A stretch of 64,000 nt of DNA, from IMG/VR virus record IMGVR_UViG_3300042261_000762, positions 32,001 through 96,000 of that record; one strand, 5' to 3'. This document shows positions 4,480 to 61,483 of the stretch, piece after piece. The number at the start of each line of letters is the position of its first letter. Within the stretch, counting starts at the first letter, position 1. The translations under genes were made by a program, and so were the position numbers. The notes below the pieces were generated by a model. It was not told the origin of the DNA. It did no database searches and saw only the letters and a program-made list of their open reading frames with translations. Source of the DNA: a virus.

Positions 4480-5820
4480 ATGGTAATAAATTTCAAGAAT
4501 TATATATTTGAATCTGTCAATAAACCTAACGCTAGAATTGTAATGTCTTTCAAATGCAACAGAAAATGTAGAGGGTGTTGCAATCAAATAGCTGAATTTG
4601 ATCATATATTGGCTAAAATTGAAGAAATAAAAGATTACGAAAAAGTATTCATTACTGGTGGTGAGCCAATGTTATATCCAGATAGATTAATGGAAGTGAT
4701 TAATATTTTGAGAAATAATGGAAATAAGAAAATTTATTTATATACTGCTTGGCCTTATCCAAAAAAGAAATTTTTAGAAATATTAAAACATCTTGACGGT
4801 GTAAATCTTACATTACACGCAGCTTTAGATAGAATGTTGTTCTATGATAATGGATACGATAAGATGAAATTTCCAGGAAAAAGAATGGTTTTGAAAGTCT
4901 TTGGAGTTAAACATTTAAATATTGAAGGAGACTGGGATGCCAAGACAGCCAAATGGTTAAAGGATTGCCCAATGCCGCCAAGAGAAGATCTCTATGTTTT
5001 GACTGAAAATTGTAATAATAATTTATTAGAGAAAGTGGCAGAATCTCCAATAGTCGATATAAATAAGTATAATACCTCATTAAGTAAAACTATAGATGAA
5101 AAGTTATTTTTTTTAGATAAAATAAATACAGATTTAATTGTAGATTTTGGATGTGCCGATGGTAAAATATTACAAGCTATAAGACAAAGAAAACCAAAAA
5201 TTTCTTTAATAGGTTATGACGTGTCTGATGATATGTTAAATATAGCCAAAACGACATTACCTGGTGCAAACTTCACTAATGATTGGATAAGTGTGAGATC
5301 TGCGGCTTATAATCACGATAATCCTACCTTGTTATTATCAAGTGTTATACATGAAGTATATTCTTATTCTGATTCTAAAGAAGTTAAAAAATTCTGGGAG
5401 GAAAAAGTTTTTGGTGGCATGTTTAAGTATATTGTTATTAGAGATATGATACCATCAGTTGAATTACAAAGACAAGATTTTCTAAACTTCAGAGAAGATG
5501 CTAAAAAAATAAATAAAAGAGCTAATAAAAAATATTTAAATTCCTTTGAAAATGTTTGGGGTCTGATAGATAATGATTATAGAACGTTATTACAATGGCT
5601 ATTAAAGTATAGATATACTGATAATTGGGAGAGAGAACTTAAAGAAAATTATCTACCATTAACTCTAGAAACTCTCTATAAGAAAATCCCTTCCAATTAT
5701 AGAATATTGTTTAAAGATAATTATATTTTTGAACCCCTTCAAAAGCATGTAATGAATGATTTTGGTATAAAATTAAATCATACCACTCATACAAAAATGA
5801 TTATAGAAAGAGTTAGATAA
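4480..5820 (+). CDS. Radical SAM domain fused to class I SAM methyltransferase
   Basis: CNRKCRGC and ITGGEP in the N-terminal half; VDFGCADG and IGYD in the C-terminal half; leader MVINFKNYIFE. Confidence 0.75.
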   Translation: MVINFKNYIFESVNKPNARIVMSFKCNRKCRGCCNQIAEFDHILAKIEEIKDYEKVFITGGEPMLYPDRLMEVINILRNNGNKKIYLYTAWPYPKKKFLEILKHLDGVNLTLHAALDRMLFYDNGYDKMKFPGKRMVLKVFGVKHLNIEGDWDAKTAKWLKDCPMPPREDLYVLTENCNNNLLEKVAESPIVDINKYNTSLSKTIDEKLFFLDKINTDLIVDFGCADGKILQAIRQRKPKISLIGYDVSDDMLNIAKTTLPGANFTNDWISVRSAAYNHDNPTLLLSSVIHEVYSYSDSKEVKKFWEEKVFGGMFKYIVIRDMIPSVELQRQDFLNFREDAKKINKRANKKYLNSFENVWGLIDNDYRTLLQWLLKYRYTDNWERELKENYLPLTLETLYKKIPSNYRILFKDNYIFEPLQKHVMNDFGIKLNHTTHTKMIIERVR

Positions 5821-6334
5821 AACTCTTTATACATTCATATATACTCATTCTAACAGGAGCCCTATTATTTCCACCAAAATAAGGATAACCTTTTTTCTGA
5901 ATCTTGTGATCCTTTGTGTTATTTTTCATTTCTATTGTAGAATCACCAACTGATATAATATATTTATTATCTTGTATAACTATTTTTGCGTCATAAGTTA
6001 TATCAGTATTCACATTACAAATGTATTGACTTATATGTGGATCATTTCTTGTCCCATCATATACATAACCATATACTTTTATGTTATTTTGAGTTTTAAA
6101 ATCTGGGACCCAAGCCAATCTAACACTATTTTTATGTATAGCAAAAACCCCAAAAGATATACCACATAATTTATTTAAGTCATAATCATCGCTATTTCTA
6201 GGTGAATCCCACCAACATTCAGGTGAAAATTTAAATTTAATATTAAATTCTGTCTTATTGTAGAACCACCCGAAAAGTCTTTCTATCAAGAAAAAAGCAT
6301 AATGCCAACCTCTTAAAATTGTATATTTTTTCAT
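5813..6334 (-). CDS. Hypothetical beta-rich protein
   Basis: 173-aa ORF with PYFGGN near the C-terminus; function not recognised. Confidence 0.55.
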   Translation of the reverse strand: MKKYTILRGWHYAFFLIERLFGWFYNKTEFNIKFKFSPECWWDSPRNSDDYDLNKLCGISFGVFAIHKNSVRLAWVPDFKTQNNIKVYGYVYDGTRNDPHISQYICNVNTDITYDAKIVIQDNKYIISVGDSTIEMKNNTKDHKIQKKGYPYFGGNNRAPVRMSIYECIKSFI

Positions 6335-6535
6335 AACTTTTTTTATTTTATATATTAAATATTTTTTTCAACAACTTTCGTAATATATTGATGATCAAAT
6401 ATGTTTTTTTGTAAAAGGAAAAACTATGTCCTTTTTTCGTTATATATAATGACAGAATCATAATTTTAGATTTTGTTTATCTATGTAGCAGAATCGGTAA
6501 ATTTAAAAAAAAAACTTTATTAGGGGAGGTAAAAA

Positions 6536-7558: not shown

Positions 7559-7560
7559 AT

Positions 7561-7761: not shown

Positions 7762-8235
7762 ATGGGAAAATTAGAAAATTTGTTAGGTTTCGATGATTTT
7801 GAAAAAAGTTGGAAACCAAGAGAGCAAAAGTCCACCAAAAGAACAGATGTTGGTTTAGATATATTAAACGAAAACTTATATATGAAAGTTATGGATCAAG
7901 ATGCTGCTGGATGGAAGGAGAATGTTACTAAGTTCATTCAAAGCATAATGAAAGCCGTAAACGAAAATCAGATTAAGGATATTAAGGTAACTGATTCAAC
8001 TGCTTCTTTTACAATTCGTGGACGTAAACATAGAATAAACAAGGACGCTGGTTCTATTACTCTATGGAGAATGAAAGCTACTGCTTTTAGACCAACCTAT
8101 CACGATGAAGCTGGTCGTCTAAAACATGAGAAGAAACGTAAGAAAACACGTGAAGAGATTGAAGTAACAATTCCTATCAACAAAAATGAAGGAACTGCTA
8201 TTTATAATGCTCTTAAAGAAAGAGCTGAGGATTAA
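7762..8235 (+). CDS. Hypothetical protein, putative virion/late protein
   Basis: 157-aa ORF after a TTAATATATA motif and followed by a terminator. Confidence 0.6.
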   Translation: MGKLENLLGFDDFEKSWKPREQKSTKRTDVGLDILNENLYMKVMDQDAAGWKENVTKFIQSIMKAVNENQIKDIKVTDSTASFTIRGRKHRINKDAGSITLWRMKATAFRPTYHDEAGRLKHEKKRKKTREEIEVTIPINKNEGTAIYNALKERAED

Positions 8236-8538: not shown

Positions 8539-9894
8539 ATGAGTAATAATCATCCAAAAATAACTAATTCTATTGATGTGATGATTTCTGATGCCATGCT
8601 TGGTCTTCAGTATTATGGCGAATTTTGCCAGTATATAAATTTTAAAAATTATCACGCTATTGGAACTTGTGGAGTTAGAGTAGATTTAGCTGGTATGCGT
8701 TATTTCTATAACGAAGAATTTGTTGATGAAATGACACAAGGAGAAATGAATTTCATCATGTTACATGAAGTTCTTCACCTTTTATGGGATCATCAAGCAA
8801 GAACAAGAAGATGTGGTTATGATCATGAGCTTAGCAATATAGTTCAAGATATGATTATCAATGATGTTATTAAAACTGATATTATTGATAAGATGGAGTA
8901 TAGTAATAAAATAAATAAAAGAAATTGTCATTTTGCTGATATTCCAAGAAAAGAAGTAATGGTAAAACATGCCGATGGTAGTAAGACCGTTGGTAGAGAA
9001 GTTTGGGTTTTAGAAAAACCAGCAGAATATAAAGGGAAATTGTCATACGAAGAAATGTATGAATGGATATACGGCGAGAAACAAAAATATGATGAATGGA
9101 AAGATCATTGTGAGTGCGATAAAAGCTTGCCATGTAAATGTAATAGAAAAGACGGCGGAACAAAAGAAGGCAATCAGAAATGTAAATGTCAAGAATGTCC
9201 TGTAAGTAATTATTTGCGTGGCATTTTTGAGAAAATGGATATGGGTTTATTAGAATGGTTAGATAAACATTTACCTAGTGATATTCCAGAAGATTATAGA
9301 AAAAGCATAATAGAGAATGTAAAAAATAATCTTAGAGCAAGAGGATTAGAATCTGCTGATATTCTTGCAACTTTAGATAAGATAACAAAATCTAAAAAAG
9401 ATTATATTAAAAATATAAAAATAGGTATAAATGAACTTTTTGGGAATTATAAAAATAAATCAATAACTAAAAGAAATAGAAGATCTATAGAAGGAGTAAA
9501 AGGTAAAAGAAAAGAATCTTACGCTCTTAATGTTCTGCTGGATGTTTCTGGAAGTATGGAAGGATATTTTGAAAAAGCGTTATCTTATATTTTTCAAAAT
9601 GGTATAAAAATAAATCTTATACAATGTGATACTGTGGTAAAAGATTACATGGTTATAAAAGATAAAGCCCATTTTAGAAAAATAAAAATAAATGGATTGG
9701 GCGGGACAATTCTTCAACCAGGTATAGATTTCATATCATCAAACAAAGATTTGAGCGATTTGAATACTTTAATATTAACAGATGGAATGACTGATGAACT
9801 TGATGTAACAAAACTCAAAAAGACTATGATTATAAGTCATAATCAGAAATGTAAAGTAATAGGCGAGGCAAGACAAATTGTAATAAAAGAATGA
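8539..9894 (+). CDS. Metallopeptidase-like (HExxH) plus vWA domain protein (DUF2201-type)
   Basis: MLHEVLHLLWDH; MIDAS LLDVSGSM; GLGGT; ILTDG. Confidence 0.85.
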   Translation: MSNNHPKITNSIDVMISDAMLGLQYYGEFCQYINFKNYHAIGTCGVRVDLAGMRYFYNEEFVDEMTQGEMNFIMLHEVLHLLWDHQARTRRCGYDHELSNIVQDMIINDVIKTDIIDKMEYSNKINKRNCHFADIPRKEVMVKHADGSKTVGREVWVLEKPAEYKGKLSYEEMYEWIYGEKQKYDEWKDHCECDKSLPCKCNRKDGGTKEGNQKCKCQECPVSNYLRGIFEKMDMGLLEWLDKHLPSDIPEDYRKSIIENVKNNLRARGLESADILATLDKITKSKKDYIKNIKIGINELFGNYKNKSITKRNRRSIEGVKGKRKESYALNVLLDVSGSMEGYFEKALSYIFQNGIKINLIQCDTVVKDYMVIKDKAHFRKIKINGLGGTILQPGIDFISSNKDLSDLNTLILTDGMTDELDVTKLKKTMIISHNQKCKVIGEARQIVIKE

Positions 9895-10334
9895 ATTGGA
9901 CTTATAAGGAAATAAATTATTTTGATTTTTTGTTGGAATTTCCAGAAGTAGTAGATACTTTTTATTTACCAGCTGGTATAGATCCTTTATTCTACATAGA
10001 ATATGTAAAAGAAATTCATAAAACTAATCCAACTAAAAAACCTTTGATAATATTAGATAATGTGAAGTTATCAGAAGTTGTACATAGATGCATTAAAACA
10101 AATGAAGAAAAATTCGATATATTTAGAGGATATTTAAGTGTAAAAGTGAACAATGATGAAATTTTTCATGTAAAACCAACAAAAAATCTTTTAAGTTACG
10201 AAAGAAATAATTTGAAAGAATTAGAAGGAGAATTTACTATAATATCATCATTTCCACCGGGTTATTATAATTTTGATGAAGTGGAAATGAAAAACTTAAA
10301 AAGAGACCTTTTAATAGGTAAAATGTTTAGATGA
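9891..10334 (+). CDS. Hypothetical protein
   Basis: Translationally coupled (ATGA overlap) within the vWA/MoxR operon. Confidence 0.55.
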   Translation: MNWTYKEINYFDFLLEFPEVVDTFYLPAGIDPLFYIEYVKEIHKTNPTKKPLIILDNVKLSEVVHRCIKTNEEKFDIFRGYLSVKVNNDEIFHVKPTKNLLSYERNNLKELEGEFTIISSFPPGYYNFDEVEMKNLKRDLLIGKMFR

Positions 10335-12047: not shown

Positions 12048-13082
12048 ATGATTAAATTATTTGATAATTTCATTAATGAACAATACGAATTAGATCCTTA
12101 CGGTGAAGAAAATTTGGATGATAATGTTAAAGTTAGAATTGCCAAATGTAAAAAAGATTTCAAAATAGGGCGTGATAAGGTAGTGCTGTTTCATAAAGGG
12201 GATGAATATGAAATAGTAGATGATCACGATTGGGACGGATTTATGATTCTCAAAACTCAAATACATGGAACTCCACATAATCACGCAATACCATTAAATA
12301 ACATGTATAAAGATTCTTTTTGGAAACATTTTATTATTAAAGAAAATATTAAATCTGATGTAGATCCTTATGGTGAAGAAAATTGGAATGATTTGGAGCC
12401 AGTTGATGATGTAGTTCTAAGATTTCGAAATTATTATAAATGTGTTGAATGTGGCAATGAATGGGAAGATGAATGGGATTCTACTTGCGATGATGAATGT
12501 CCAAATTGTGGCACTATAATGACGCCATATGAAAGCGAAGATATAAATGAATCTTTTACAGAGGATGATCCTTATGGTGAAGAAATATGGAATGACATTA
12601 AACCGGATCCAATAAATAGAGATACTGAAATAGAAATTGGTGATAAGATATATTATCATTACGATAGAAATAATATCGAACCAGCATTCATGGGTGAAGT
12701 TGAAAGAATAATTAATCACCCTAAGTTTGGATTTGTTGATTATTTAATATCTGGAAAATATTCTCGAGAAATCAGTAAAATGAATTTGATTGGATGTGGG
12801 GCTAGAATAATAAAAAGGACAAATGAGACAATAAATATTGATCCTTATAATGAAGAAAATTGGAAAGATGAAGAGGAATTTAATATTGGTGATGAATTAA
12901 TTTGTAAAGAAGATATAATGACATCTACTGGCAAATATTGGCTGTTTCATCAAGGAAAAACGTATAGTATAATTAGAGTTACACATGATTGGATATTCGT
13001 TCTCACGAAATCTTTAGGACACGAAGTTAATATTCCTTTCACAAGAAAGGGCATTTGGAAAAGTTTCGATAAAAAAAATTAA
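12048..13082 (+). CDS. Modular polyprotein with four DPYGEE tags (small beta modules and a Zn ribbon)
   Basis: Leader MIKLFDNFINE; four DPY(G/N)EE motifs each preceded by an xNE/IKE junction; CVECG...CPNCG module. Confidence 0.7.
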   Translation: MIKLFDNFINEQYELDPYGEENLDDNVKVRIAKCKKDFKIGRDKVVLFHKGDEYEIVDDHDWDGFMILKTQIHGTPHNHAIPLNNMYKDSFWKHFIIKENIKSDVDPYGEENWNDLEPVDDVVLRFRNYYKCVECGNEWEDEWDSTCDDECPNCGTIMTPYESEDINESFTEDDPYGEEIWNDIKPDPINRDTEIEIGDKIYYHYDRNNIEPAFMGEVERIINHPKFGFVDYLISGKYSREISKMNLIGCGARIIKRTNETINIDPYNEENWKDEEEFNIGDELICKEDIMTSTGKYWLFHQGKTYSIIRVTHDWIFVLTKSLGHEVNIPFTRKGIWKSFDKKN

Positions 13083-14218: not shown

Positions 14219-14223
14219 CACAT

Positions 14224-17594: not shown

Positions 17595-18428
17595 TTAATC
17601 AATAACTCTAATTGGAGCCTGTTTAATGTGGTCTAATTCTGAGAACGGTGGTTTATAAACATGCCATCTTCCTTTTGGATCTAGTAATACTATTTCCTTC
17701 TTACGATCTCCTGGTTCTTTCATTATAACATCAGATACAAGGAATCTATCCTTGAATTTATATCCTCTTCTCATTTCATTTCCAATCCCTTCAGGAGTCA
17801 TTATTATAGTTTTATTTAGAAGTTGATCTTTTACTAATTTTATTATTTGATTATCAGTCATTCTTCCGAAATCCTGTAGAGAAAACGAAACAGTATTATC
17901 TTCTCCTTGTTCTTCCCATTCTTCTTCACCATACGGATCTTCTTCATCGTGATTAGCTTCTTCTTTGCCATCCTCATTTTCTAAGACTCTTAAAAATCTT
18001 CTACATCTAGCCAATCCCTCTTGTTTTTTATGATTTCTAGCTAATTTATCTGGGTTCCTCATTATATTCTCTATAACTACTTTAATATCTTCCGCTAAAT
18101 CCGCGTAGTTATTTTCGGCATACTCTTGAGCCATGTGATCAACTAGGGTTTTAAGATCTTCGTCAGACATTTTATCCATAGCTTTGTTTGTCAAATCATG
18201 CATATTATAAAGAAGACCTAATTTTTTGGATCTTGCTATAAATATATCTAATTCTCTAAAGACTCCTCTCATCGGTTTCGACCAGAAAAATAATGCTTTT
18301 AATACTCCTAATAAAGCATGTGCTTTAGCAAAACTATATTCGAGTTTGACTCTTCTACCAAATCTTTTAACATCTTTCCAATTTAATTCTTCATTTACAA
18401 ACTCATCGTATCCTTTAATATTGTTCAT
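17595..18428 (-). CDS. Hypothetical protein with targeting-like leader and DPYGEEEW tag
   Basis: MNNIKGYDEFVNE leader; internal EDPYGEEEW. Confidence 0.65.
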   Translation of the reverse strand: MNNIKGYDEFVNEELNWKDVKRFGRRVKLEYSFAKAHALLGVLKALFFWSKPMRGVFRELDIFIARSKKLGLLYNMHDLTNKAMDKMSDEDLKTLVDHMAQEYAENNYADLAEDIKVVIENIMRNPDKLARNHKKQEGLARCRRFLRVLENEDGKEEANHDEEDPYGEEEWEEQGEDNTVSFSLQDFGRMTDNQIIKLVKDQLLNKTIIMTPEGIGNEMRRGYKFKDRFLVSDVIMKEPGDRKKEIVLLDPKGRWHVYKPPFSELDHIKQAPIRVID

Positions 18429-18735
18429 GTTCTCTTAATTATTTATATGTTGGAAGATTTTCCCAATATTTTTTTTGGAATATACTTAAAGGTTTTTCTT
18501 TCTTCAAAACATTTCCAAAATTAATAGGTTTTACTTTATTTCCATATTTGGCTAGAACTCTCCACTTATAAGGTTTCTTACCTATATATCTTTTTGGAAC
18601 ATTAAATCCTGGGAAGTCCTCACCGTTGTATCGTACGAAATTTGGAAAAATTTGAACATTTTCAAGTTTTCCTTCGTTTATGTTATTATAAGTATTAAAA
18701 TTTTGTACTCCCATATTTTTATATTTCATTTTATA

Positions 18736-19404
18736 TCAATCCATTGGAATAGATCCTAATGGATCCATTAAAAAATATCCATCATTCCAGTTTTTAGTAA
18801 AATCGTTCCATTCCTTGTTAGGATCATTTACACGATGACGATATGATCTGACATGATGCATCTTATTTTTAGATAAACCTGTTCCTTTACAAAATCTACA
18901 TTTTCCTTTTCCTTCTGGATCTCTTCCAGTCCCATCGCAATATTCACACACTCCATTTAAGCTACCCTGTACTCTCTTTTTACCTTCACTTGTCATAACA
19001 GAATCTTGTTCTACATTATTTACATTATCTTTAGTTCCAAAATTAATTTTAACATATTTATAATATTTATTAACAATATCCTGAGCTGTTCTTTTAGAAT
19101 CTTTAGAATTATCTACCATTCTCTTAACTTCTGAAGCTTTCTCTGCTCCTAAATTAAAGAAAGAATTACAAACCTTATCTATATCTTGATCATTGGCATT
19201 AGGATTCTTTTTCAAAAGCATAGGTTTAAGAATAATTTTCATATGTTCTTGTATTTGTTGAAACTTATTTTCACTTCTTATATAGTCTGGATTATTAGAC
19301 ATATCATCTGATGTTACGCCCACTTCTTGTCTATTCATGGGCCATTCATTAGAATATGTTTGTTCTAGAACAAATTTGTCGAATTTTTTTATAAGTTGGC
19401 TCAT
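18736..19404 (-). CDS. Hypothetical protein with DnaJ-type Zn-finger repeats
   Basis: MSQLIKKFDKFVLE leader; CEYCDGTG...CRFCKGTG. Confidence 0.6.
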   Translation of the reverse strand: MSQLIKKFDKFVLEQTYSNEWPMNRQEVGVTSDDMSNNPDYIRSENKFQQIQEHMKIILKPMLLKKNPNANDQDIDKVCNSFFNLGAEKASEVKRMVDNSKDSKRTAQDIVNKYYKYVKINFGTKDNVNNVEQDSVMTSEGKKRVQGSLNGVCEYCDGTGRDPEGKGKCRFCKGTGLSKNKMHHVRSYRHRVNDPNKEWNDFTKNWNDGYFLMDPLGSIPMD

Positions 19405-39855: not shown

Positions 39856-39856
39856 A

Positions 39857-40111: not shown

Positions 40112-40114
40112 AAT

Positions 40115-40309: not shown

Positions 40310-40312
40310 AAA

Positions 40313-47053: not shown

Positions 47054-48069
47054 TTACTTAAATAATCCTCTATTTCTTTTTTGGATCTTTCTTCTTCCTC
47101 TATTTGAAATTTAGCTTCTAATTCTTTTTTCAAGTCTGAAGCTAAATTAAACATGTTCAAATATTCTTCTCTGGATATTTGTTCCGATATATGATCATAA
47201 GCTATTGAATAGTTAGATGCTAAGTTAAATACAGATATACATATATCTCCACTTATGGTGCATCCGCCACTAAACCAAATATGGTCTGGGTGTTTTATTG
47301 ATTTCAAGCTTTTATGAAAAGCTTCTATTAGTTTATCTTTCATCTTTTTATATCCTCATAATTTTCTGGCGCATCAGGATAAAAATCCTTCAACATTTCC
47401 CATTTTTTCAATTCTTCAAAATCACCTTTTGTTAATTGATTCAATCTAAGAGCTTTAGCCCAAGTGAACATTATTCTCAATTGATCTTTAGTAAATCCCC
47501 CTACAGTTCTTTCGGGTTCCGAATCTACTTGATTTATAGAATTTATTTTTTTATCTAATAATTCTCTATAATTTTTTTCTTTTTTAATTTTAATAATATC
47601 TGATGTTATTCCTAATTGTTCCTCTATGAAGAGCAATCTTTCTTCTAAATTCGATATTCTTTCAGCTAATGTCATATTAATAATTTTCTATTTCTTTTAA
47701 GACTCTATCTATTTGTCTTCCGATGTCTAAAGGCAACATCATATTGGTTCTACATTGTTCCAATAAATATTTCATTCTCATAGACACATCGAGAAGAGCG
47801 GCTATGTCTTTTTCCATATTTTTATCCATTTTTTGTTTATTAGATGATTCTACTTGTTCTCTTAATTTTTGATTTTCCAATCTGAGATATTCAAGTTCGT
47901 AATTTTTATCTTCATTTCCCCAACCAGGCAAAGCCCAAGGATCTTTTTTCTTTCTAGTTGCCATTTTAGAACATTCTTTTTTTGTTATATAATTTTTTAA
48001 CTGAAAGGTTTTATTTATCAAAAAAACAATTTTTTGAATTTAATATATAACAAAAAGAAAATATTAACC

Positions 48070-48519
48070 ATGAAAGTTAAAACATTATTAGATTTCATAA
48101 ACGAACAATCTGGTAGCGATTACGATAAAATTTTTTGGGATCCATCAGGACCATATGGCGTTGGTAAGGCAGATAAACCAATTTATAAAAAGCTCAGAGA
48201 GAGAATAATTCCCGGATATGATGGTCCGATTGAAGAAGAGGATGAAGATCCATTCATGTCCGGCCTTAATCAAAAAAGAAATTACAACAAAATAGAGAAT
48301 GATGCTGAAGTTTTATATCATTCTGTAGAACCAGAAAATCTTGAAGATGTTATGGAAGAAGGACTTCATGGTCAAATATATTTAACAAAAACTCCACAAG
48401 AAGCACGTAAACATCATCCTATAGTCCTAAAAATAAACGTTAAAGGTCGTAAATTAACAGTAAAAGATGAAGGTTTTGTAGTAAAAGATGTTCCTGTAGA
48501 TCAAATAACTGAATTATAA
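48070..48519 (+). CDS. Putative ADP-ribosyltransferase-fold protein with targeting-like leader
   Basis: MKVKTLLDFINE; LYHSVEPENLEDVMEEGL..IYLT....A...IVLKIN resembles Tpt1/KptA-type ART motifs. Confidence 0.5.
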   Translation: MKVKTLLDFINEQSGSDYDKIFWDPSGPYGVGKADKPIYKKLRERIIPGYDGPIEEEDEDPFMSGLNQKRNYNKIENDAEVLYHSVEPENLEDVMEEGLHGQIYLTKTPQEARKHHPIVLKINVKGRKLTVKDEGFVVKDVPVDQITEL

Positions 48520-49047: not shown

Positions 49048-49920
49048 ATGATATTATACGGAAAAGAAATAGAACCAAGACAATATTATTGTCAATTATT
49101 CGATTGCGATTTAGAGGCAGTAGAAAAACCTTATATGAACATTCAAGTTAAATTAAAAGGATGTAATGCTGATTGTTTGTTCTGTGAAAGTAAAGAACCA
49201 GGTAATTTTGACGAAGATAAATATTTTGAAAAATTGAAGAAAATATCCGAGCAAGTACCAATTTATAAATTGAACTTCACTGGAGGCGAGCCAACACTAA
49301 ATTTCGAAAGACTTAAAAGATTAATAAAAGGATCAATTGAAATCATACCCGATGTTTATATCGCTATAAACACCAATGGATATAACTTCGAAAGATTATT
49401 TGAAGAAAATATACATGAATTAGTTGGTAATATTCAATTATCAAGACACCATTATAGCGATATGTTAAACGATAAAATTCTTGGAGTTAAATCTGTTTCT
49501 AAAGATACAATAAAATCTATCGCTTCGAAATTAGAGAATAAAAGACTTCTCAATTTGTCTTGCAATCTTATAAAAAGTTGTATTGATAATGAAGAAGAAA
49601 TAATAAGATATTTAGAAGAAGCATCAGCAATTGATATAAGATGGGTTGGTTTTGTAACTCTTATACCATTAAATGATTTTTGTGTAGATCAAAAAATATT
49701 ATTCGAAGACATGAAATTGGAATGTGATAGGTTTATATTAACAAAACATTGGAAATATGAAAATAAATGTCAGTGTTATGGTTATGTGTATATTCCAACA
49801 GACGGTGGAGACCCAATAAGAGTTTATAATAAGAGAACTGAGAAAGCAGATCTTAAGAACATATTAGTCTTTGATGGGGAAAATTTTAATATTGGATTCT
49901 CAAATGATGCTTTACTTTAA
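49048..49920 (+). CDS. Radical SAM protein
   Basis: CNADCLFC, FTGGEP, NTNG, LSRHHY. Confidence 0.88.
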   Translation: MILYGKEIEPRQYYCQLFDCDLEAVEKPYMNIQVKLKGCNADCLFCESKEPGNFDEDKYFEKLKKISEQVPIYKLNFTGGEPTLNFERLKRLIKGSIEIIPDVYIAINTNGYNFERLFEENIHELVGNIQLSRHHYSDMLNDKILGVKSVSKDTIKSIASKLENKRLLNLSCNLIKSCIDNEEEIIRYLEEASAIDIRWVGFVTLIPLNDFCVDQKILFEDMKLECDRFILTKHWKYENKCQCYGYVYIPTDGGDPIRVYNKRTEKADLKNILVFDGENFNIGFSNDALL

Positions 49921-50541
49921 TGGTCTAGCATATATCTCCAACATATTAGATGGCGCTGGATCGTAATCATAAGGCTGTTTAACAACAACATTAGATTCTA
50001 TTATTTCAAATCTTTTGGAAATTAGTTCATCCCATTGTTCTTTTGTCCTCATAGATTTGCCTGTATTTATTCCGCCAACATTAACTATTTTAACAGATAC
50101 GAACAATAATCCATTCATTGTAATAGTTCTATGAAATTCATCTAAAATATTTGATGTTTGTTCGTCATTGAAATAATGTAGAGATAATCTTGAAAATATA
50201 ATATCAAACATTCCCTCTCTAAATGGTAATTTTCCTTCACTTATGTCTTGTAATATCCATGTATTATTTGGTAAAATATCTTTTATTTTATTAATAGCAA
50301 CATCACTTATATCTATTCCATATACATCATAACCTTTCTTATCAAAATATAAAGCATTAGATCCGTCACCGACTCCAACGTCTAGAACTTTTCCTCTTTT
50401 GATAATTGAAGATATTTTATCTATATTGTTATCTGGAGTGCTTTGTGTATATTTTCCTGTTCCAATTTTACCATATAAATCATTCCACATTTCTGTAGCA
50501 CTACTATATTGTTCATTTAAGATGTGTGTGAATTTTCTCAT
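49912..50541 (-). CDS. Class I SAM-dependent methyltransferase
   Basis: VLDVGVGDG, GIDIS, FDIIFSRLSLHYF; leader MRKFTHILNE. Confidence 0.85.
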   Translation of the reverse strand: MRKFTHILNEQYSSATEMWNDLYGKIGTGKYTQSTPDNNIDKISSIIKRGKVLDVGVGDGSNALYFDKKGYDVYGIDISDVAINKIKDILPNNTWILQDISEGKLPFREGMFDIIFSRLSLHYFNDEQTSNILDEFHRTITMNGLLFVSVKIVNVGGINTGKSMRTKEQWDELISKRFEIIESNVVVKQPYDYDPAPSNMLEIYARPLK

Positions 50542-50709: not shown

Positions 50710-51751
50710 TTAAAACCAACCTCCGAAAAAAGAAGTCTGTTGTTTTGGTGGTTTAAGACAAGTAGATTTTGTCCACATATTAAAATAACCAGTTATTAAT
50801 CCAAGTGATGTGTTTGGTACTCTAATTAAATAATCACATTTATCAGTATTTGGAGAATCACAGAGGTTGTGATGTTTGTAACTTACATGATCTATTTTTA
50901 TTACAGTTACTTGTTTACCGTGATGTAAATTCCACATATAAGGAAAACAATTAATATCTGGAACATATGTATATACTCCATTTACCTTAATTTTTTCTAC
51001 TGATTTTTGATTTTGTTTTCCTGGTCCAGTTCCGTTTTTTATTGTTAAAGTCCCGTCTTTATCATCAATACTCCAATTTCCTGGTTTATGCCAAGGGCCA
51101 TTTGGATCTTTAGATTTCTGCTCTGGTTTAGCGACCGGTTTAGGCTCTGTCTTTTCTTTTTTCTTAAAACATTTGGTCCATGCTATAGTGATATTTCTTT
51201 GACATTCATTGGCTTTTTTATATCTTTTGGCTTTTGGATACAAAGATTCTATTTCTTTCATCAAAGGCAACGCCATATCAACAAGAAATCTAAGTCTATC
51301 TTCCATAGCTTTATTTGAATTTGAATCTGAATCTGTATTAATAAAAGCTGGCATGCCATCCACGTCTTCAGCATTCTTATCTATTGATTCTGATAAAAAC
51401 TTTTTATAATTTTTATTAATTTTCCCAGTCTTCTTCTCCATATGGATCTTCTTTTGTTATTTTTCTTTTTCCCTGAGGATAATAAGGCACATCTTTGCCA
51501 CTCATCATCATACCCATTCTTATAGCACTTACATAAGAAAATATATTAGCTAATCCCATCTGACTAGCTGTTGTTTGATAGATTTCCGTCCCGTCTTTTA
51601 TTTTTAATACGAACATGTTGTTTTCTGTTACCATTGATAAATGTGGATATATTTTCCAAACCGCGGCCATTATTCCTTTTATGTCGTCAATAGTAACATC
51701 ATCGCCATGTTTCATTTGTTCTTTTAATATATCTTGAAATCTTTTAACCAT
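50710..51751 (-). CDS. Two hypothetical late proteins (50710-51441; 51416-51751 with C-terminal DPYGEEDW)
   Basis: Leaders NKNYKKFLSE and MVKRFQDILKE. Confidence 0.55.
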
Positions 51752-52338: not shown

Positions 52339-53039
52339 TTATCTTTCTAATTTTCCTACAAAAATTAAAGATCTGTCAACTTGAGCTTGCATGTAAGGAT
52401 CTTCTTCTCCCCTGTTTCCATTATTAAAATTTATATTTATAAATTCATCTATGTTTTCACCTATTACTTTAGTCCTGGTATCTACAATATTCGGTCCTAT
52501 TACGTTTTGATTAATATTCCAAATTATATAAACATATCCTCTAATAAAATGGTTTTCATAATTTCTTGTGCATAAATATATGTTATTCATACTTGTTATT
52601 TCCTGTTCTTCTACAGGATTCCATATTTCCTCACCATATGGATCTATTTTATTAAATTTCTCAAATGTCTTTATTATGCTTTTTTCCATAATCCGTCAAA
52701 TTCTCCTTTTTTTAGTTGAGATCCGTCTGCTGTTACTAACCTATAATCGCCTGGTTTATTATTATCTATTAATAATTTAGCTCTTTCAAGATTAAATTTT
52801 AAAACTCTTTCGTCTCTATACTTAATGTTTTTTCCACCAGACATCGCTGTAAATTGGTTAAACTTACCATCTCTCATTTGCGTTAGAAAAAATTTTTTAC
52901 CATGTTCCACTTTAAATATAGCCCATCCTCTTTCATACCAAGGCAAATCATCTTCAAAATCTTCTTCAGTATTATCTACTTCATCGAAATTACCTTTTTT
53001 ATACCATTTGATAGAAAATTCTTCAAACATCTTAACCAT
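52339..53039 (-). CDS. Two tagged hypothetical proteins (52339-52689; 52674-53039)
   Basis: IIKTFEKFNKIDPYGEEIW; MVKMFEEFSIKWYKKGNF. Confidence 0.55.
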
Positions 53040-53655
53040 TTATATTAATTAATTTTTCAAAAGCCTCTTCCACTAATTGTGGACTTAATAATGTAATATC
53101 TGAAATATTAAAATCACCTTCATTTCCTAAATTCCATCTCTGTATGACTCTTATAGAAACCTTATCCATCGGTTTCGAATCAAGAACATGCGGGGCATCA
53201 TCTACTTGAACATCAGATTGATCCCATTTATCTAATGATCTAGGAACAAAAGATATATCATCATAAGGTATTTTATATTTTCTTATCCAGTCCATTGCTC
53301 CTTGTTGAGCATTCTTTCCAGGTTGGCATGTAACTATTCTAACCAAAATACCATTATTTTGTGTGTATTCATACACTTCTCTCATCGTTTCTACTGCTCC
53401 TACATATGGTTTTGAATTTTTCCACATTTCATATCTATGATCGTCTATCCATTTATAAGGATCCATCCCATTATAGTCTAAAGAATGGTACCAATACCAG
53501 TCTGATACTTGATTCGATGGAATGAATTTATTACCTGGAAAACATTTAGAATAAACGCAATTGAAGCTTTCGGCAAAATCGTTCAAGACTCCATCCAAAT
53601 CTATTCCCAGTACCTTTTCATTTAAATGGTTGAATTTTTCGAAAGTTTTTAACAT
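53032..53655 (-). CDS. 5'(3')-deoxyribonucleotidase-like HAD phosphatase
   Basis: GIDLDGVL, PYVGAVE, IVT, QVDDAP, WN; leader MLKTFEKFNHLNE. Confidence 0.8.
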   Translation of the reverse strand: MLKTFEKFNHLNEKVLGIDLDGVLNDFAESFNCVYSKCFPGNKFIPSNQVSDWYWYHSLDYNGMDPYKWIDDHRYEMWKNSKPYVGAVETMREVYEYTQNNGILVRIVTCQPGKNAQQGAMDWIRKYKIPYDDISFVPRSLDKWDQSDVQVDDAPHVLDSKPMDKVSIRVIQRWNLGNEGDFNISDITLLSPQLVEEAFEKLINING

Positions 53656-53780
53656 TAAGAAATCTTTGTTTTATGCTATATATAAAAAACTAAAAATATA
53701 ATTTAATATATACGAAAGAGATATTTTGTTTTATTTAAAAAACGCTGTATCTTAGCTGTACAAAAAACAATTTTGAAAAT

Positions 53781-54502: not shown

Positions 54503-55293
54503 TTATTGTTTTATTGTTTTTAATTTATTAAGCCCCCAGAATATATCAACTATTCTACATTTAATAACACCGTAATATGGTTGTGCATTCCAACTTGTTG
54601 ATTTCTGCGGTTTTTGTAACAAAGCAGTTACCCAGATTATATCTCCTCTTTTAACTTCTTTTACTCCGAGATCAGCGTTAAAAGTAGGTCCGCCTGATAT
54701 GTTTTCTTCTAATTTAGCTATTCTATCTTTATCGGTTATGACTGAAGTTACCTGAACTATCTCAACTGGATCCGTAATTTTTTCTATATCGCCATTCTCC
54801 AGTTCTCTTAAAGCAATAATATCCGATGAAAGTTGATCAAATTCTTTTTTTCTTTTGAACTCTTTTACTTTTCCTTTTTTATATTCTTCAAAGTCTTTAG
54901 TTATATCAGACATTATTTTCTTTAATATTTTTTAACTTACCAATCTTCCTCTCCGTAAGGATCTACACTTCTCATTCTATCTTTTAATTGTTGTTTCTTG
55001 ATCATCCACTTATCAAAATCTTTTTTTTTAAGAAAATTGTTATGCCATTGAGTTCCTATTAGTATTCCGGATTCTATATCTATTATATCAAGAAGACCGT
55101 CTGATCTAGAATCAGTAACTCTATATGCATTACCTGTAGTTAGATAACGATTTGTGAATGTGCTATAAATAATATCTCCAACATCAAATGGTTGTTTTGG
55201 ACCTTTTCCTTTAGGATGTTTCATTTCAGGAGCCCTGTGTGGAAGATTTGTCTCATATATGTATCTTTCAAATGATCTTATATTATTAAGCAT
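54503..55293 (-). CDS. Two hypothetical proteins (54503-54913; 54937-55293 with C-terminal DPYGEEDW)
   Basis: MSDITKDFEEYK; MLNNIRSFERYIYE...VDPYGEEDW*. Confidence 0.55.
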
Positions 55294-55824: not shown

Positions 55825-57417
55825 TTACTCTGCTGGTGGTATTACCATCGGAGCGAACTTTTTCTTGACTTTAATATTATAATGAGTCAATCTTTGAAGT
55901 GTTCCTTCTTTACCAATAATTTCCATTATATCAAACAGAGAAGGACCATATCCCATTCCAGTTAAAACAAGTCTTAAAATTGGAGCAATATCTCCAAATT
56001 GAAGATTGTTTTGTGCTACATATCCTTCAAAAGCCTTTTGAATATTTTCTGAGCTCCATTCAGATACAGTTGCTAAGGCGTCTTTTAAACCAGCTAGAAT
56101 TGCAGGACTTTTATCGTTCCATTTATTTTTAACTGTTTTTTCATCAAAATTCGTTGGTGGTTTGAATAAATACATAGAAGCTTCATAAATATCACCAATG
56201 AAATTGGCCTTACCTTTATTCATTTGAACCATTTTTGCTACGGTTCTATCAGGAAGATTAATTCCTTTTTCTTTTAGAATAGGAATAAGTTTAGCTGTAC
56301 ATTCTTCATCAGATACTTGTTTTAAGTATTGACCATTGTACCATTTAGCTTTATCAATATTAAATTTAGCTCCTGCTCTACCACAACGCTCTAATGAGAA
56401 TGCAGCGATAAGTTCATCCATACTCATTATTTCTTGTTCTGTTCCTGGATTCCAACCTAAGAAAGCTAAGAAGTTTACAAAAGCTTCTGGGAAATATCCT
56501 TCTTCTTTATATTTTAATGTAAATACGGAAAATCCTAAATCTTCAGCATTACGTTTTGATAATTTTCCGGCTCCGCCTGGGTTAAGTAAGAGAGCCAAGT
56601 GGGCAAATTTAGGAACTTCCCATCCTAAAGATTTGTACAGAAAAACATGAAGCGGGGCACTTGGAAGCCACTCTTCACCACGAATTACATGACTCGTTTT
56701 CATTAAATGGTCATCAACTATGTTAGCTAAGTGATATGTTGGAAGACCATCCGACTTGAACAGAACTTTATCATCAAGTGTATTTGTGTTAGCTTCAACG
56801 TTACCTCTGATAACATCCTCTACAACTATAATTTCATTTTCTGGAAACTTCGCTCTGATTACATGAGGAGTATTCTTAGCAAGTAAGTTTTGTACTTCTT
56901 CTGAACTCATTGTAAGTGAGTTCTTCATTGTCATTCTAGTAGTATGATCATATTGTGGTGATGCTACCCCTTTTTCGATCAATTTGGATTTCATATTTTC
57001 GATATCGTCTGGAGTATCAAAACAATAATATGCGTGACCTTTATCAATAAGTTCCTTGGCATATTTTGGATAAATATCATATCTCTCAGACTGACGATAT
57101 GGACCATATGGTCCACCGATCCATGGGGCTTCATCCGGAGCAATTCCCATCCAATCTAATGATTTTTTAATATAATCTTCCGCTCCTTGAACGAAACGCT
57201 GTTGGTCTGTATCTTCTATTCTAAGATAGAATACGCCATTATATTTTTTAGCAAAAAGGTAATTATAAAGAGCTGTTCTTGCTCCACCAATATGCAAAAG
57301 TCCCGTAGGACTGGGAGCGAATCTGGTGCGAACCGTCCCAGATACACTTTCTTTCATCATACCAACGAATTTTTCAAATTCAGTAATGTTTATTAAATTC
57401 ATGTTTTTCATGTTCAT
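55825..57417 (-). CDS. gltX: Glutamyl-tRNA synthetase with N-terminal targeting-like leader
   Basis: VRTRFAPSPTG, HIGG, RIEDTD, YRQSER, PTYHLANIVDDH, IRGEEW, KLSKR, anticodon-binding domain. Confidence 0.96.
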   Translation of the reverse strand: MNMKNMNLINITEFEKFVGMMKESVSGTVRTRFAPSPTGLLHIGGARTALYNYLFAKKYNGVFYLRIEDTDQQRFVQGAEDYIKKSLDWMGIAPDEAPWIGGPYGPYRQSERYDIYPKYAKELIDKGHAYYCFDTPDDIENMKSKLIEKGVASPQYDHTTRMTMKNSLTMSSEEVQNLLAKNTPHVIRAKFPENEIIVVEDVIRGNVEANTNTLDDKVLFKSDGLPTYHLANIVDDHLMKTSHVIRGEEWLPSAPLHVFLYKSLGWEVPKFAHLALLLNPGGAGKLSKRNAEDLGFSVFTLKYKEEGYFPEAFVNFLAFLGWNPGTEQEIMSMDELIAAFSLERCGRAGAKFNIDKAKWYNGQYLKQVSDEECTAKLIPILKEKGINLPDRTVAKMVQMNKGKANFIGDIYEASMYLFKPPTNFDEKTVKNKWNDKSPAILAGLKDALATVSEWSSENIQKAFEGYVAQNNLQFGDIAPILRLVLTGMGYGPSLFDIMEIIGKEGTLQRLTHYNIKVKKKFAPMVIPPAE

Positions 57418-57569: not shown

Positions 57570-60500
57570 TTAAAAAAGCCAGTTTTCTTCTGGTTTGTAA
57601 TCATTCATATAATCGTTTATAATATCTTTTAATTTTTTATCTTCTCTTTCATCCCAATTTTCTTCGCTATATGGGTCTATATCAGATTCTTCTTCTACAC
57701 TTTCCCATACTTCTTCACCATAAGGATCTTCTGGATGTTCTTCCATCCATCTTAATCTTTTTATTTCAAATTCTTCTAATTTTCTTTTATATTTTTCTAT
57801 TGTTTCTTTTGGAGCTTTTAATAGAAGTTTTTCTCCAACTATGTGACAAAATGGTTCTTCGTTGTCTATAAAACACACCTTGAATCTTCTAGGCCCGTGT
57901 TGGTATCCACGATAAGGTAAAGGAACTTCATCTATTATTTTAACAATACCTTTTTCTAGATGATTAAAATTTCCATTATAGATTGCATAATCTCCAACGT
58001 TTAAATCTCCTAATTGTTCATTTACAAAACTGTTAAAATTTAACATTAATTTTTTTATTTTTTTCTATAATTCAATTCATAATAATCTATATATCCTGTA
58101 CCATTACATTCTGGACAATCAACTTCTTCGCCTGTGTCTTGGTCTGTCCATCCACCTTCTCCTCCACATTCATCACACATTTCATCATCTCTGTCACCAC
58201 ATAATTGCTTTAATTCTTCGTCTGTATAATTTAAAAGAGACTGTCTTATTAAATCACTTATGAAGTGTCTATAATCATAAGGATTATTAATTAGATCCTC
58301 TATTATATCAGAAATCATTCTATCTCTATCTAATTCCATTGGTTTTTCATTCCAATTTTCTTCTCCATAAGGGTCTAATATATTATCCATGTCTTTTTTG
58401 TTTTCGAATGCAAAATTATGAAAATTTTTTATATTTTCCATCAAAATTTTTATTTTTCTTCCCAATTTTCTTCTCCATAAGGATCATTAATATATTTTGG
58501 AGGATCTATTTCTTTATTCATAATTAAAGCAAGAATATCATCTAATCTTTGATTAATATTTTTTTCCATAAGTTCTAAACGTCTTATAACTCTTCTTGCA
58601 CCAGAGTAAGCATCACAAGACTCATCTATTTTTTCAAATTCATCTATTATTTCATTAAAAGATTTCACGTTCCTATATATTAAAATTATTTTTTAATTAA
58701 TTATATATCCCAACCCGGATCTTTTAAACACATATCACATATCTTCTCTACAATCAGGACAAACTTGGTCTAACATTAAAGCATATGGATAACGTTCTCC
58801 ACATATTCTACAATGAGTATAATCAAGTTCTCTATCTCTATCATCTAAATAATCCAATATCCCTCTATCAAATTCTTCCTTTTCCTTATCTTCGTTCCAG
58901 TTTTCTTCACCATAAGGATCTAAATCATTTTGATTTTCGAATATCTTAAATTTATTATCATTCAAATATTTTCTTTTATTATAGTCGTGAATTTTAAAAA
59001 CTTCTTCCCAACTTATTATTCCTTCTTCTGGTCTTGATATCTCATCCGTTTTAATTTTTTTGAAAATATCAATCTCTTTAATAACAAAATCTTCCATTAT
59101 TTTATCTCTCAATGTATCTTTTTCAAGACTATTAAAATATCTAGTTTTTTTCTTTCTATTATTTTCTATATTTTTATTTTTTTTAATCTTTTTAATTCTA
59201 GCTCTTCTGCTACCAGCAAAATATGGATCTTCTATTACGTCACTAGCAACACCAATAACATCTGGACGTCTGAATGTTGCAGAATCAGGACCTTTATTGA
59301 AAGAAGGACCGGCATTTTGTTGATCGCTATGACCCATAGAACCATATCCTGTTACATTTCTATAATCAGAATACTCGTTTAGTGGACTTTGACACATTAT
59401 AAAATCTTCTTTTGAAATTTTAAATATTTTCAATATATCTGAAAATTTTAAGTCTTGAAAATCCCCTTCTCCTTGCCAATCGCATACATATACTTTTATT
59501 CCAATTTTATCATCCATTACTAATTTCTTTTCTTCTTCGTTTAATGGAATAAAATCCCAGTCTGGAAGAGGGAAAAATTCAAATGAATATCCTTTTTCAA
59601 AACATTCACCAACAGCCATTAAATAATCACATGCTTTTGTTCCTTGAAATCTAAATTGAATTATACCTCCTTCTTTATTAACCGGATTGGCGTCGTTGTG
59701 ATAAGAAGAAAAATAATAAAACCCACCGTCTTTTAATGCTACTTTTTGAATATCAAATCCGTTTAATTCTTCCCATATTTCTTCACCATATGGGTCTATT
59801 TTATTTCTATCTTGTTCGAATAATTTGAATTTTTTTATCATAAAATTAATTTTTTTTAAAATCTGTTATCTTCTCTAAAATATATTTCTTCTCTATGCAT
59901 TAGCCAATCGAAGTGTTCACTACACAAATAAGTTGTTAAATTATGTCTCATTTCAAATTCTCTATATTGTTCTTCTTCAAAATGTGGGTTCCACGGATTT
60001 TCTTCTCCTACTTTATGACTTGCCATATTTTGACAACCAACTATCATACATTTAACTCCTTTAACAGAACCTGGTAATTTATGTTCATCCCCCCAGTTTT
60101 CTTCCCCGTAAGGATCTATTTTATTTTTACCTCTTTTATATCTCTTATTCTCATCAATCTTATTTTCAATTCTTTTCTTCATTTTATTTATGAGTTCGTC
60201 TAATTGAAGAATAAAATTTTCTTTGGATGTTATGTTTGTTGTTTCTGTTTTTGTTTCATTCCCTCTTTCGTGTGATAATTGTAATGTATTTTGCCCGTGT
60301 AATTCATAGAAATCGAAATTAAATCCCTTAAATTTAAATTCTATGGTTCTACCTATCTTTGGATAATCTGGATCAGCATCCATGTATGTAAAATTCTTAA
60401 CTCCTCTTATATTTTTTATAAAATCGATGTAATCGTCAAATGGAAATTCATTCCAATCTTCCTCACCGTAAGGATCGATATTAGAGTCGATTTGTTCAAA

Positions 60501-61345
60501 TATTTTAAATTTTCTTATCACTTAATTCTTTTTAATTTTTCTATTATTGGATCTATTCTTCTTTTAAGACCATATAAAATACTAGTCCCTTCAAAAGCGT
60601 CATTCCAAACATGGGCTATATATTTAATTCTAGCAATAGTTGCTTCGTCAATTTGACCATCACTCTTTTTCAAGAAAGATAAAATTTTCTTTTCTATTGT
60701 ATCAGGTTTTGTATCTTTTAATAATTCAATAACTTCAGACATATTTTGTAATGTATCTAATAGATCAATAAATCCACTAACATCAGTGTGTACTGATTCT
60801 TGCGCCCATTCACCTTCTACATAATTATATTTAAATTTTTTATTTTTATCTTTTTCTCCCCATTCTTCTTCACCATAAGGATCATGTGCTTGAATTTTTT
60901 TTCTTTCTTCTTCTTGTTCATCTTTATATTTTCTTGTAGCGACTGGATCTAATTCCAACATGTGTTCTGGAACTCCTTTTAATGTTCTTATAGTATCAGT
61001 TCTAGTTATAGAATCCTTTTTACATCGTCCTTCTTCATCATAAATTAGATGCATAATTCCACTATAAACATCTAAAAATTCTATAGCATATGTATTTGTT
61101 TTAGATTTTGCAAATGGAATTTCAATATAACGATCTCTATCTATTCTATCGCCGATTCCTTGAAAAAAACTTCTACCTTTTTTTCTAGTTCCATATGAAA
61201 TTTTACATAATTTACCATCAAGTTCTTTATCGTTAGGATTATGATATATACAAATATCACCGCCATGAAATTTATGTTTATGAAAATGGTGTTCCAAACC
61301 CATTATTTTTACTTCTTCGTTATATTTCTGAAATTTCTTTATCAT
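57570..61345 (-). CDS. Six tagged hypothetical genes (57570-58046, 58055-58441, 58450-58668, 58735-59841, 59856-60521, 60518-61345)
   Basis: All have KFxxF-type leaders and one or two DPY(G/S)EExW tags; several carry Zn ribbons. Confidence 0.65.
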
Positions 61346-61483
61346 AAATTTTCTGACCAATCTTCTTCACCATAAGGATCAAAGATTTTATTTTTATTTT
61401 TTTATTTCTTCTAATTTTGTTCTTTGTTCATCGATGGCATTTTTCTTTTTTCTAAATATATTAAATTCTTCAAATGTTCTCAT
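61342..61483 (-). pseudogene. Small tagged gene frameshifted in an A7 run
   Basis: MRTFEEFNIF...LEEIKK* continues in another frame as NKIFDPYGEEDWSENL*. Removing one A at 61397-61403 restores a single ORF coupled to the ATG at 61345. Confidence 0.6.

Follow-up and report, generated by a model that had tools for sequence, protein, structure and literature searches.

T4 capsid-targeting-like leaders on many unrelated proteins of a giant lake phage, and a repeat scaffold with the same core in its relatives

Background

The head-loading signal of bacteriophage T4, the capsid-targeting sequence (CTS), is MKTYQEFIAE (PMC8442874), and suppressor analysis assigned its residues 4 and 7 mainly to targeting and its residues 8 and 10 to processing (PMC9026906). 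Cleavage by T4-type proteases takes place after Glu (PMC5694885). Here we analyse N-terminal leaders that resemble this signal in a stretch of 64,000 nucleotides of virus DNA (the window), which comprises bases 32001-96000 of a 104-kb contig with 29% G+C (IMG/VR record IMGVR_UViG_3300042261_000762), a fragment of a giant lake phage.

Short, transferable peptides on unrelated enzymes are also known from encapsulins, where a cargo-loading peptide directs proteins into an HK97-fold shell; these peptides mostly sit at the C-terminus, attach to the shell protein itself, stay uncleaved and are a feature of cellular nanocompartments and not of virions. The leaders described below can be likened to them as short and transferable elements on unrelated enzymes, and differ by their N-terminal site. 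The T4 protease follows the cleavage rule (L/I)-x-E. The "LIE-9" site cited in PMC9026906 fits this rule. In phiKZ, 201phi2-1 and SPN3US, the ejection and inner-body proteins have propeptides that a gp21-related protease processes by cleavage at (S/A/G)-x-E, and in SPN3US only 8 of ~50 head proteins are processed (PMC5694885). The likeness of this group to the system proposed here lies in many different head-loaded proteins, including a virion RNA polymerase, that are trimmed after Glu by a related protease (PMC5694885). Their propeptides, in contrast, are mostly longer than 100 residues, have no common short N-terminal consensus and have a small residue at P3, whereas the leaders are 9-23 aa long with I, L or V at P3; neither a long propeptide nor the (S/A/G)-x-E site was found among the leaders.

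The closest database relative of the contig is LR756501, a 735-kb "uncultured phage" described by Al-Shayeb et al. in 2020, whose glutamyl-tRNA synthetase (GluRS) is 77% identical. Open reading frames (ORFs) in the standard code cover 92-94% of the relatives, so no sign of recoding was seen. Al-Shayeb et al. assign their largest genomes to a Bacteroidetes-infecting clade named "Mahaphage" (PMC7162821). Literature searches found no paper on such leaders in huge phages.

Results and Discussion

N-terminal leaders in the window and in related genomes

To describe the leaders, a position-specific scoring matrix (PSSM) was generated from huge-phage N-termini, with the Met column omitted; the seeds were picked from the contig and LR756501 by a loose, T4-inspired regular expression, and the alignment was anchored on the first aromatic residue. 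A threshold of at least 8 bits was used, and 16-residue windows inside proteins, scored with the same matrix, served as internal control. The proteins counted were 142 on the contig, 902 in LR756501 and 538 in LR756504, for which the first 400 kb were covered.

The leader occupies the extreme N-terminus, runs from Met to Glu, and has the consensus M-[ILV]-K-[KN]-[FY]-x-x-[FY]-[ILV]-N-E or M-I-K-K-F-K-[LI]-F-E. These forms correspond to two classes, both with Glu at P1: class A, [FY]-x-x-[FY]-[ILV]-[NK]-E (n=80), with I, L or V at P3 in 84%, and class B, K-K-F-[KE]-[LI]-F-E (n=26), with L or I at P3 in 80%. On the contig, 34 of 142 N-termini reached the threshold against 5 of 1549 (0.3%) internal windows; the corresponding counts were 149/902 against 95/12099 in LR756501 and 55/538 against 70/6323 in LR756504. 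Columns that the seed pattern did not force were still informative (Met at -4 in 55%, I/L/V/M at -3 in 83%), which sets the motif at a fixed distance from the start codon, and in the same seed alignment Lys was favoured at the unforced positions -2 and -1.

Within the window, 31 genes reached 8 bits and two further genes visibly fit the pattern below the threshold. This agrees with a preliminary description of the window, which had reported T4-like leaders on more than 30 proteins, and the N-termini quoted there are all present at the genes named. The leader genes are grouped in islands, with none in the replication region or among the giant structural ORFs, and only 1 of 29 T4-homologous replication, tail and terminase proteins scored as tagged, that one having a conserved Rad50-type N-terminus. 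Direct reading of the leaders, which end in Asn-Glu, revealed no hydrophobic stretch of a Sec, Tat or lipoprotein signal peptide, for which an h-region of at least 10 residues behind a basic n-region would be expected; true signal peptides in the window, such as those at 33072 and 33779, look different. The genes are listed below with coordinates, strand, leader (a slash marks the predicted end) and PSSM score.

4480-5820 (+): radical SAM and methyltransferase protein, MVINFKNYIFE/S, Radical_SAM from aa 21; 15.1
7762-8235 (+): weak or atypical leader MGKLENLLGFDDFE/K, borderline; 9.4
9891-10334 (+): weak or atypical leader ...YFDFLLE/F, borderline; 10.0
12048-13082 (+): modular ORFan, MIKLFDNFINE/Q, four DPYGEE junctions; 18.5
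17595-18428 (-): ORFan, MNNIKGYDEFVNE/E; 17.3
18439-18729 (-): small ORFan, ...MGVQNFNTYNNINE/G; 9.9
18736-19404 (-): ORFan, MSQLIKKFDKFVLE/Q; 18.4
19462-20478 (+): ORFan, MIRKFELFE/S, start probably 19468; 15.0
20462-20797 (+): small ORFan, MLKKFEQF, then directly DPYGEE; 12.6
20794-21114 (+): small ORFan, MIKRYKIFE/Q, then DPYGEE; 13.6
21101-21445 (+): small ORFan, MGDFKKYNEFLL; orthologue MTAYKNYNEFLLE; 8.9
21873-22214 (-): small ORFan, MKLNHLKTFETYTNE/E; 14.0
22232-22867 (-): ORFan, MDILRKYRHFVNE/A; orthologue MDILRKYRHFINE; 16.3
22948-24006 (-): ORFan, MSIHKYYSFVNE/R; 14.8
26008-27009 (+): ORFan, MITKFKLFE/A; 17.5
27010-27426 (+): ORFan, MITKFKIFE/N; 18.9
27423-30737 (+): 1104-aa modular protein, MIKKFKIFKINE/G, five DPYGEE-type junctions, CCA-adding/HD enzyme from aa 649 (Pfam); 12.6
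31772-32989 (-): PPK2, MINNYGEFLNE/D, PPK2 domain from aa 167 (Pfam); 15.7
48034-48519 (+): ORFan, MKVKTLLDFINE/Q, start probably 48070; 8.4
49912-50541 (-): SAM methyltransferase (Pfam), MRKFTHILNE/Q; 9.6
50710-51441 (-): ORFan, ...NYKKFLSE/S; 13.3
51416-51751 (-): small ORFan, MVKRFQDILKE/Q, below threshold yet fitting the pattern; 6.8
52339-52689 (-): small ORFan, MEKSIIKTFEKFNKI, then DPYGEE; 12.2
52674-53039 (-): small ORFan, MVKMFEEF..., without terminal Glu, borderline; 9.1
53032-53655 (-): NT5C-type 5'-nucleotidase, MLKTFEKFNHLNE/K, longer spacing, NT5C from aa 14; 6.8
54937-55293 (-): small ORFan, MLNNIRSFERYIYE/T; 13.0
55825-57417 (-): GluRS, 23-aa leader ...NITEFEKFVGMMKE/SVSG, catalytic domain from aa 29; 8.7
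57570-58046 (-): ORFan, MLNFNSFVNE/Q; 18.2
58055-58465 (-): ORFan, MENIKNFHNFAFE/N, start probably 58441; 16.8
58450-58668 (-): small ORFan, MKSFNEIIDE/F; 8.5
58735-59841 (-): modular ORFan, MIKKFKLFE/Q, then DPYGEE; second FKIFE and DPYGEE at aa 298-313; 16.7
59856-60521 (-): ORFan, MIRKFKIFE/Q, then DPYGEE; 14.1
60518-61360 (-): ORFan, MIKKFQKYNE/E, start probably 61345; 17.0

When the Lys-rich positions were dropped and the core alone was scored, 28 of 142 N-termini on the contig matched against 14 of 1549 internal windows (p=1e-21); N-terminal enrichment in this control was 22-104-fold, and T4 gave only three N-terminal core matches. An artefact of Lys-rich N-terminal composition is ruled out by this core-only score and the T4 control. 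The leaders might still be due to chance, to AT-rich composition or to the N-terminus of one paralogous family, as Lys, Asn, Phe and Ile are common in a genome of 29% G+C and several carriers are small paralogous ORFans with DPYGEE motifs in common. The degree of enrichment, with p down to 1e-21, speaks against these explanations, as does T4 itself (282 ORFs), in which the matches are a handful that includes its three internal virion proteins, and the carriers span at least six unrelated Pfam folds. We give explanations of this kind next to no credence and consider them effectively refuted.

The synonymous codons used for F, Y, K, E and N in the leaders match those of the genome, and orthologues keep the pattern while the residues drift, as seen for PPK2 (MINNYGEFLNE and MISNYDNFMNE) and for the methyltransferase (MRKFTHILNE and MMIKKYIQFINE, the latter at 19.7 bits). 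These data indicate selection on the peptide and not on the DNA, and on the same grounds a repeat or translation signal at the DNA level was ruled out.

Proteins that carry the leader

The carriers with Pfam domains on the contig are radical SAM, NT5C, GluRS, methyltransferase, PPK2 and CCA/HD proteins. In LR756501 there are 113 tagged proteins of at least 100 aa, of which about a dozen have a Pfam domain (PPK2, CoaE, CCA/HD, methyltransferase, DeoC, radical SAM, GNAT, deaminase, DHH and Ig) and the rest, about 90%, are ORFans. The median length of tagged proteins is 230 aa. They diverge somewhat faster than other proteins, with a median identity of 51% against 63% (p=0.046). According to the preliminary description the enzyme domain often begins right after the Glu of the leader; this holds for NT5C (aa 14), radical SAM (aa 21), GluRS (aa 29) and the methyltransferase (~aa 30, Pfam) and fails for PPK2 (aa 167) and the CCA-adding enzyme (aa 649).

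The same description had proposed a comparison of GluRS with bacterial homologues. A set of 120 homologues split cleanly into bacterial proteins without the leader and phage proteins with it. The bacterial enzymes (Cryomorphaceae, Bacteroidales; 55-57% identity) begin 5-9 residues ahead of R-F-A-P-S-P-T-G, whereas two phage clades have a conserved pre-sequence of 25-33 residues, of the form ...L-T-E-F-E-Q-F-K-x-L-M-K-E/S-V-S-G or ...S-T-F-K-E-F-K-K-L-N-E/S-V-S-G; one public gene call begins downstream of the leader. The comparison shows the GluRS leader to be absent from the bacterial homologues and an addition of the phages, and a translated one.

Likeness to the T4 signal

Residues 4, 7, 8 and 10 of the T4 CTS are Y, F, I and E, which are the four conserved positions of the leader. 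At the equivalents of the targeting residues 4 and 7 the leaders have F or Y at both positions, three apart, both of them forced by the seed pattern; at the processing positions, an aliphatic P3 and a Glu at P1 are present in both leader classes. The T4 CTS scores 16.3 bits with the huge-phage matrix, and among the 282 T4 ORFs ranked by this matrix gp61.1 came first, ipII second and ipIII third, with ipI at 8.9 bits.

Two further T4 proteins were noted in this ranking. The N-terminus of gp61.1 (NC_000866, 18966-19130) is MKTFKEFIKE and scores 18.7 bits, above ipII and ipIII, and gp24.2 (109650-109928 of the same record), a hypothetical protein like gp61.1, has the CTS-like N-terminus MEQYDLYENE at 10.0 bits.

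The leaders are thus like the T4 CTS in being N-terminal, 10-20 residues long, aromatic at the equivalents of residues 4 and 7, aliphatic at 8 and Glu at 10, and in being borne by unrelated, fast-evolving proteins in a lineage with a gp21-type protease, a gp23-type capsid protein and a gp20-type portal. They differ in number, with 3-5 carriers in T4 and ~35 per 104 kb or 125-150 per 735-kb genome here, and in their carriers, which include host-type enzymes (GluRS, CCA-adding enzyme, PPK2) and are not basic. In addition, unlike T4, the huge phages have a second leader class, KKFK[LI]FE, and a strong association of the leader with a DPYGEExW tag.

The head module and repeat scaffold of the relatives

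The head genes of LR756501 are found in T4 order: an ORF homologous to a T4 ORF at 76885-77337 that we take to be gp4, a gp20-like portal (E=6e-27), a protease of 807 aa that matches phrog_207, "head maturation protease" (E=5e-27), and a Gp23-family capsid protein (90 bits). The protease gave no match in a single-sequence search against solved structures, whereas a profile of 14 protease domains found one significant match, T4 gp21 (5JBL, E=1e-11). H77 and S132 are invariant in the protease family and align with residues of 5JBL that are Ala in the crystal and His and Ser in the T4 genome. Judged by the phrog_207 match, this profile match and these residues, the 807-aa protein belongs to Peptidase S77 (T4 gp21) and has the catalytic His and Ser. 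A gp21-type protease together with a gp23-type capsid protein and a gp20-type portal was found in LR756501, LR756504 and 15 IMG/VR loci.

Residues ~320-480 of the LR756501 protease consist of ~13 tandem repeats of 14 residues, Y-[SAT]-E-Y-I-A-E-x-[LV]-D-x-x-I-x, each of which holds Ar-x-x-Ar-[ILV]-x-E (Ar, aromatic), the counterpart in the T4 CTS being Y-Q-E-F-I-A-E. An unbiased scan of ~900 proteins for internal leader-core matches of at least 10 bits found seven in the protease protein and at most two in any other, and [ILV]-x-E is dense inside the scaffold region. The repeats number 11 in LR756504 and 11-15 across 15 IMG/VR relatives, the most distant of them at 52% identity. An AlphaFold model, used for its secondary structure alone given its low confidence (pLDDT 48.6), shows residues 208-482 as an almost continuous helix, followed by a disordered acidic linker and a small C-terminal domain. 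No internal CTS-like repeats were found in T4 gp21, gp22 or gp68, so that the fusion of tandem CTS-like repeats to the protease is a difference from these T4 proteins. The link that the preliminary description had drawn between a T4-like leader and a gp21-type protease finds strong support, by comparison, in the identical CTS positions, in the recovery of T4 internal proteins with the matrix, and in the gp21/gp23/gp20 module with its leader-like scaffold repeats in the relatives.

Other features were observed in this region of LR756501. Just upstream of the head genes, 61904-66169 encodes four tandem paralogues of ~350 aa without a Pfam or PHROG match; three have clear leaders (MSTLSHYKNFVNE, ...NFNGYVYE and MALYNYNGFLFE) and the fourth a weak one, and they are candidates for major internal head proteins. 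The capsid protein (76340-78166) has ~90 residues ahead of a conserved G-Y-A-T-L-N, which corresponds to the G-Y-N-A-T-N directly after the T4 gp23 cleavage site. Its candidate maturation sites, M-N-E/N and E-Y-A-E/M, have Met or Tyr at P3, not Ile or Leu.

A capsid-targeting reading and its alternatives

On balance we read the leader, with more confidence than doubt, as a capsid-targeting propeptide of the T4 type that these phages employ on a very large scale. The close match of the leader to the T4 head-loading signal and to the phages' own scaffold repeat unit suggests that the tagged proteins are probably packed into the capsid. As the leader core is the same as the scaffold repeat core, the leader would dock into the scaffold core during head assembly by imitating one repeat, and the tagged protein would be enclosed once the gp23-type shell closes. 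The scaffold-fused protease would then cut after the Glu of every [ILV]-x-E, in scaffold and leaders alike, so that the scaffold would leave the head as short peptides, while the cargo would be freed, remain inside and enter the host with the DNA.

Most of this putative cargo is made up of fast-evolving ORFans that, as in T4, probably act in host takeover or anti-defence. A minority are enzymes, namely GluRS, the CCA-adding enzyme, PPK2, the radical SAM/methyltransferase protein and the nucleotidase, to which the relative adds CoaE, GNAT and a deaminase. Delivery of enzymes into the host is plausible, and they may then, as the preliminary description proposed, support translation before phage gene expression. 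The contig's EF-G-like, LeuRS and TrpRS/TyrRS-like genes are untagged, and a "translation starter kit" would therefore be a minority of the cargo at best.

Several points weigh against a capsid-targeting role. To our knowledge, the tagging of 14-24% of a proteome far exceeds any characterised phage, and the phage is uncultured. No match to a head protease was found on the 104-kb contig, so the evidence on protease and scaffold comes from relatives at ~50-80% protein identity; the LR756501 protease reaches 22.9 bits against Pfam Peptidase_S77, under the 27-bit cut-off, and the low pLDDT of the model given above belongs here too. Because the matrix seeds were picked by a T4-inspired expression, likeness to T4 is inflated at the forced positions, the ranking within T4 being unaffected. 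The promoter-like box described below is present at only ~29% of leader genes. Finally, T4 internal proteins are basic, whereas among the mature tagged proteins the median net charge is -0.02 per residue and 65-67% are acidic; basic charge, looked for as a mark of cargo like the T4 internal proteins, was thus not found, and the tagged proteins do not share the small, highly basic, DNA-associated character of IPI-III.

This charge bears on another explanation, in which the leader serves for docking to the scaffold-protease and for cleavage by it, but the proteins that bear it are not cargo for delivery. They would instead be accessory factors of the core or of assembly, or enzymes brought together where heads assemble, and would be degraded or expelled at maturation or only activated when the propeptide is removed. 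The tagged proteins are slightly acidic, like the expelled core proteins of T4 and unlike its retained, basic internal proteins. The evidence from leader, scaffold and protease applies equally to this explanation, and the very large tagged count is easier to reconcile with transient association. Nevertheless, a folded enzyme 200-1100 residues long that has just one site, at its N-terminus, resembles cargo and not scaffold, and capacity is not limiting, given that SPN3US loads over 40 MDa of ejection proteins (PMC7411985). We consider non-delivery quite improbable.

Should the tag function as it does in T4, proteins that travel inside the particle would be encoded by as many as a quarter of the genes of this fragment and by 14-16% of those in the largest phage genome known. 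Many of the "extra" genes of huge phages would then be injected effectors and enzymes acting before phage gene expression, and a simple sequence rule would be available for predicting virion cargo in uncultured T4-type phages. We know of no defined partner of the T4 CTS; the tag-like scaffold repeats suggest a concrete one, through co-assembly with a repeat-based core, and the tag is short, transferable and near enough to the T4 CTS for a trial in T4 itself. A bolder proposal, which we make tentatively and with more doubt than conviction, is that the largest phages known (Mahaphage-type, 0.6-0.7 Mb) may use a tag that mimics the scaffold to pre-load well over 100 different proteins per capsid, which would enter the host along with the DNA. 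Among the members of this "starter proteome" would be a polyphosphate kinase, a tRNA synthetase and a CCA-adding enzyme; the repeat scaffold, fused to the protease, would serve as a multivalent loading rack, and the huge capsid would exist partly for protein cargo.

Promoter-like box and DPYGEE tag

A promoter-like box, ATATATAG, was found upstream of 43 of 150 leader genes against 36 of 778 others (p=1e-16), and it frequently ends just 4-6 nt ahead of the start codon. On the contig 11 ORFs have the box, of which 10 are leader genes if two at only 6.8-7.0 bits are counted in. Giant structural ORFs have it upstream as well, and near-variants lie ahead of the portal and protease genes. The late promoter of T4 is TATAAATA. 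If the box is -10-like or a late promoter, the mRNAs of leader genes would be leaderless or nearly so. The [AT]TATATAG copies at leader genes in the window are as follows; one more copy, at 14688, lies inside the tRNA region.

4468-4475 (+): 4 nt before start codon
12036-12043 (+): 4 nt before start codon
25995-26002 (+): 5 nt before start codon
24011-24018 (-): 4 nt before start codon
33011-33018 (-): 21 nt before PPK2 start
53676-53683 (-): 20 nt before nucleotidase start
58673-58680 (-): 4 nt before start codon

The second element associated with the leaders, DP[YF]GEE-x-W, is present in 16 of 25 leader proteins and 11 of 117 others on the contig (p=2e-8). Its sites are directly after leaders, at C-termini and at junctions between modules of 80-110 aa, with five in the CCA protein. 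The tag departs from the [ILV]-x-E cleavage rule, and literature searches for DPYGEE in phages found nothing relevant. An extended form, [LIV]-D-P-Y-G-E-E-x-W-[ED]-[DE], was observed at module junctions in 12048-13082, 27423-30737, 58735-59841, 38970-40699 and others.

Both elements are relevant to the possibility that the leader acts independently of the head, as a stability or degradation signal, a tag for another phage compartment or hub, or an enhancer of translation initiation, its likeness to the T4 CTS being convergent. Short amphipathic N-termini with Lys and aromatic residues can have many functions, the co-occurring DPYGEExW tag has no known function, and the box 4-6 nt from several start codons suggests unusual initiation, in a start region that is very A/T-rich and with ATA over-used for Ile in the leaders. 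Codon usage is otherwise genome-like, however, and F/Y and I/L/V interchange freely; moreover, convergence would have to give all four functional positions of the T4 CTS and the same heptad in the head scaffold, in a lineage that is truly T4-type in its head genes. We regard a role outside the head as unlikely, and the capsid-targeting propeptide remains our preferred reading.

C-terminal copies and other observations

The preliminary description had also seen the aromatic motif at C-termini. As a general feature this was rejected: 12% of proteins have Ar-x-x-Ar within their final 12 residues, compared with 8.6% of internal windows, which is no enrichment, and both cited cases end at ordinary stops. 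One of the two is conserved: the C-terminus ...[RK]-I-K-K-Y-[NK]-D-F-K of 36244-36642 (-) is shared with its LR756501 orthologue at 148398-148781 (62% identity) and matches the leader's first half but lacks the Glu. This C-terminal end and the start of the following gene overlap (ATGA), and that gene opens with a weak leader, MKVLKFNEQ.

The rpS21 that Al-Shayeb et al. describe with a "basic/aromatic N-terminal extension" was considered as a bearer of the same tag and rejected, since rpS21 of LR756501 has 66 aa and no extension. Away from the main capsid gene of LR756501, the short ORFs 145855-146025, 276453-276566 and 517537-517779 have weak Gp23-family matches, and synteny links the ORF near 146 kb to window genes at ~39-40.7 kb, which end in DPYGEE tags.

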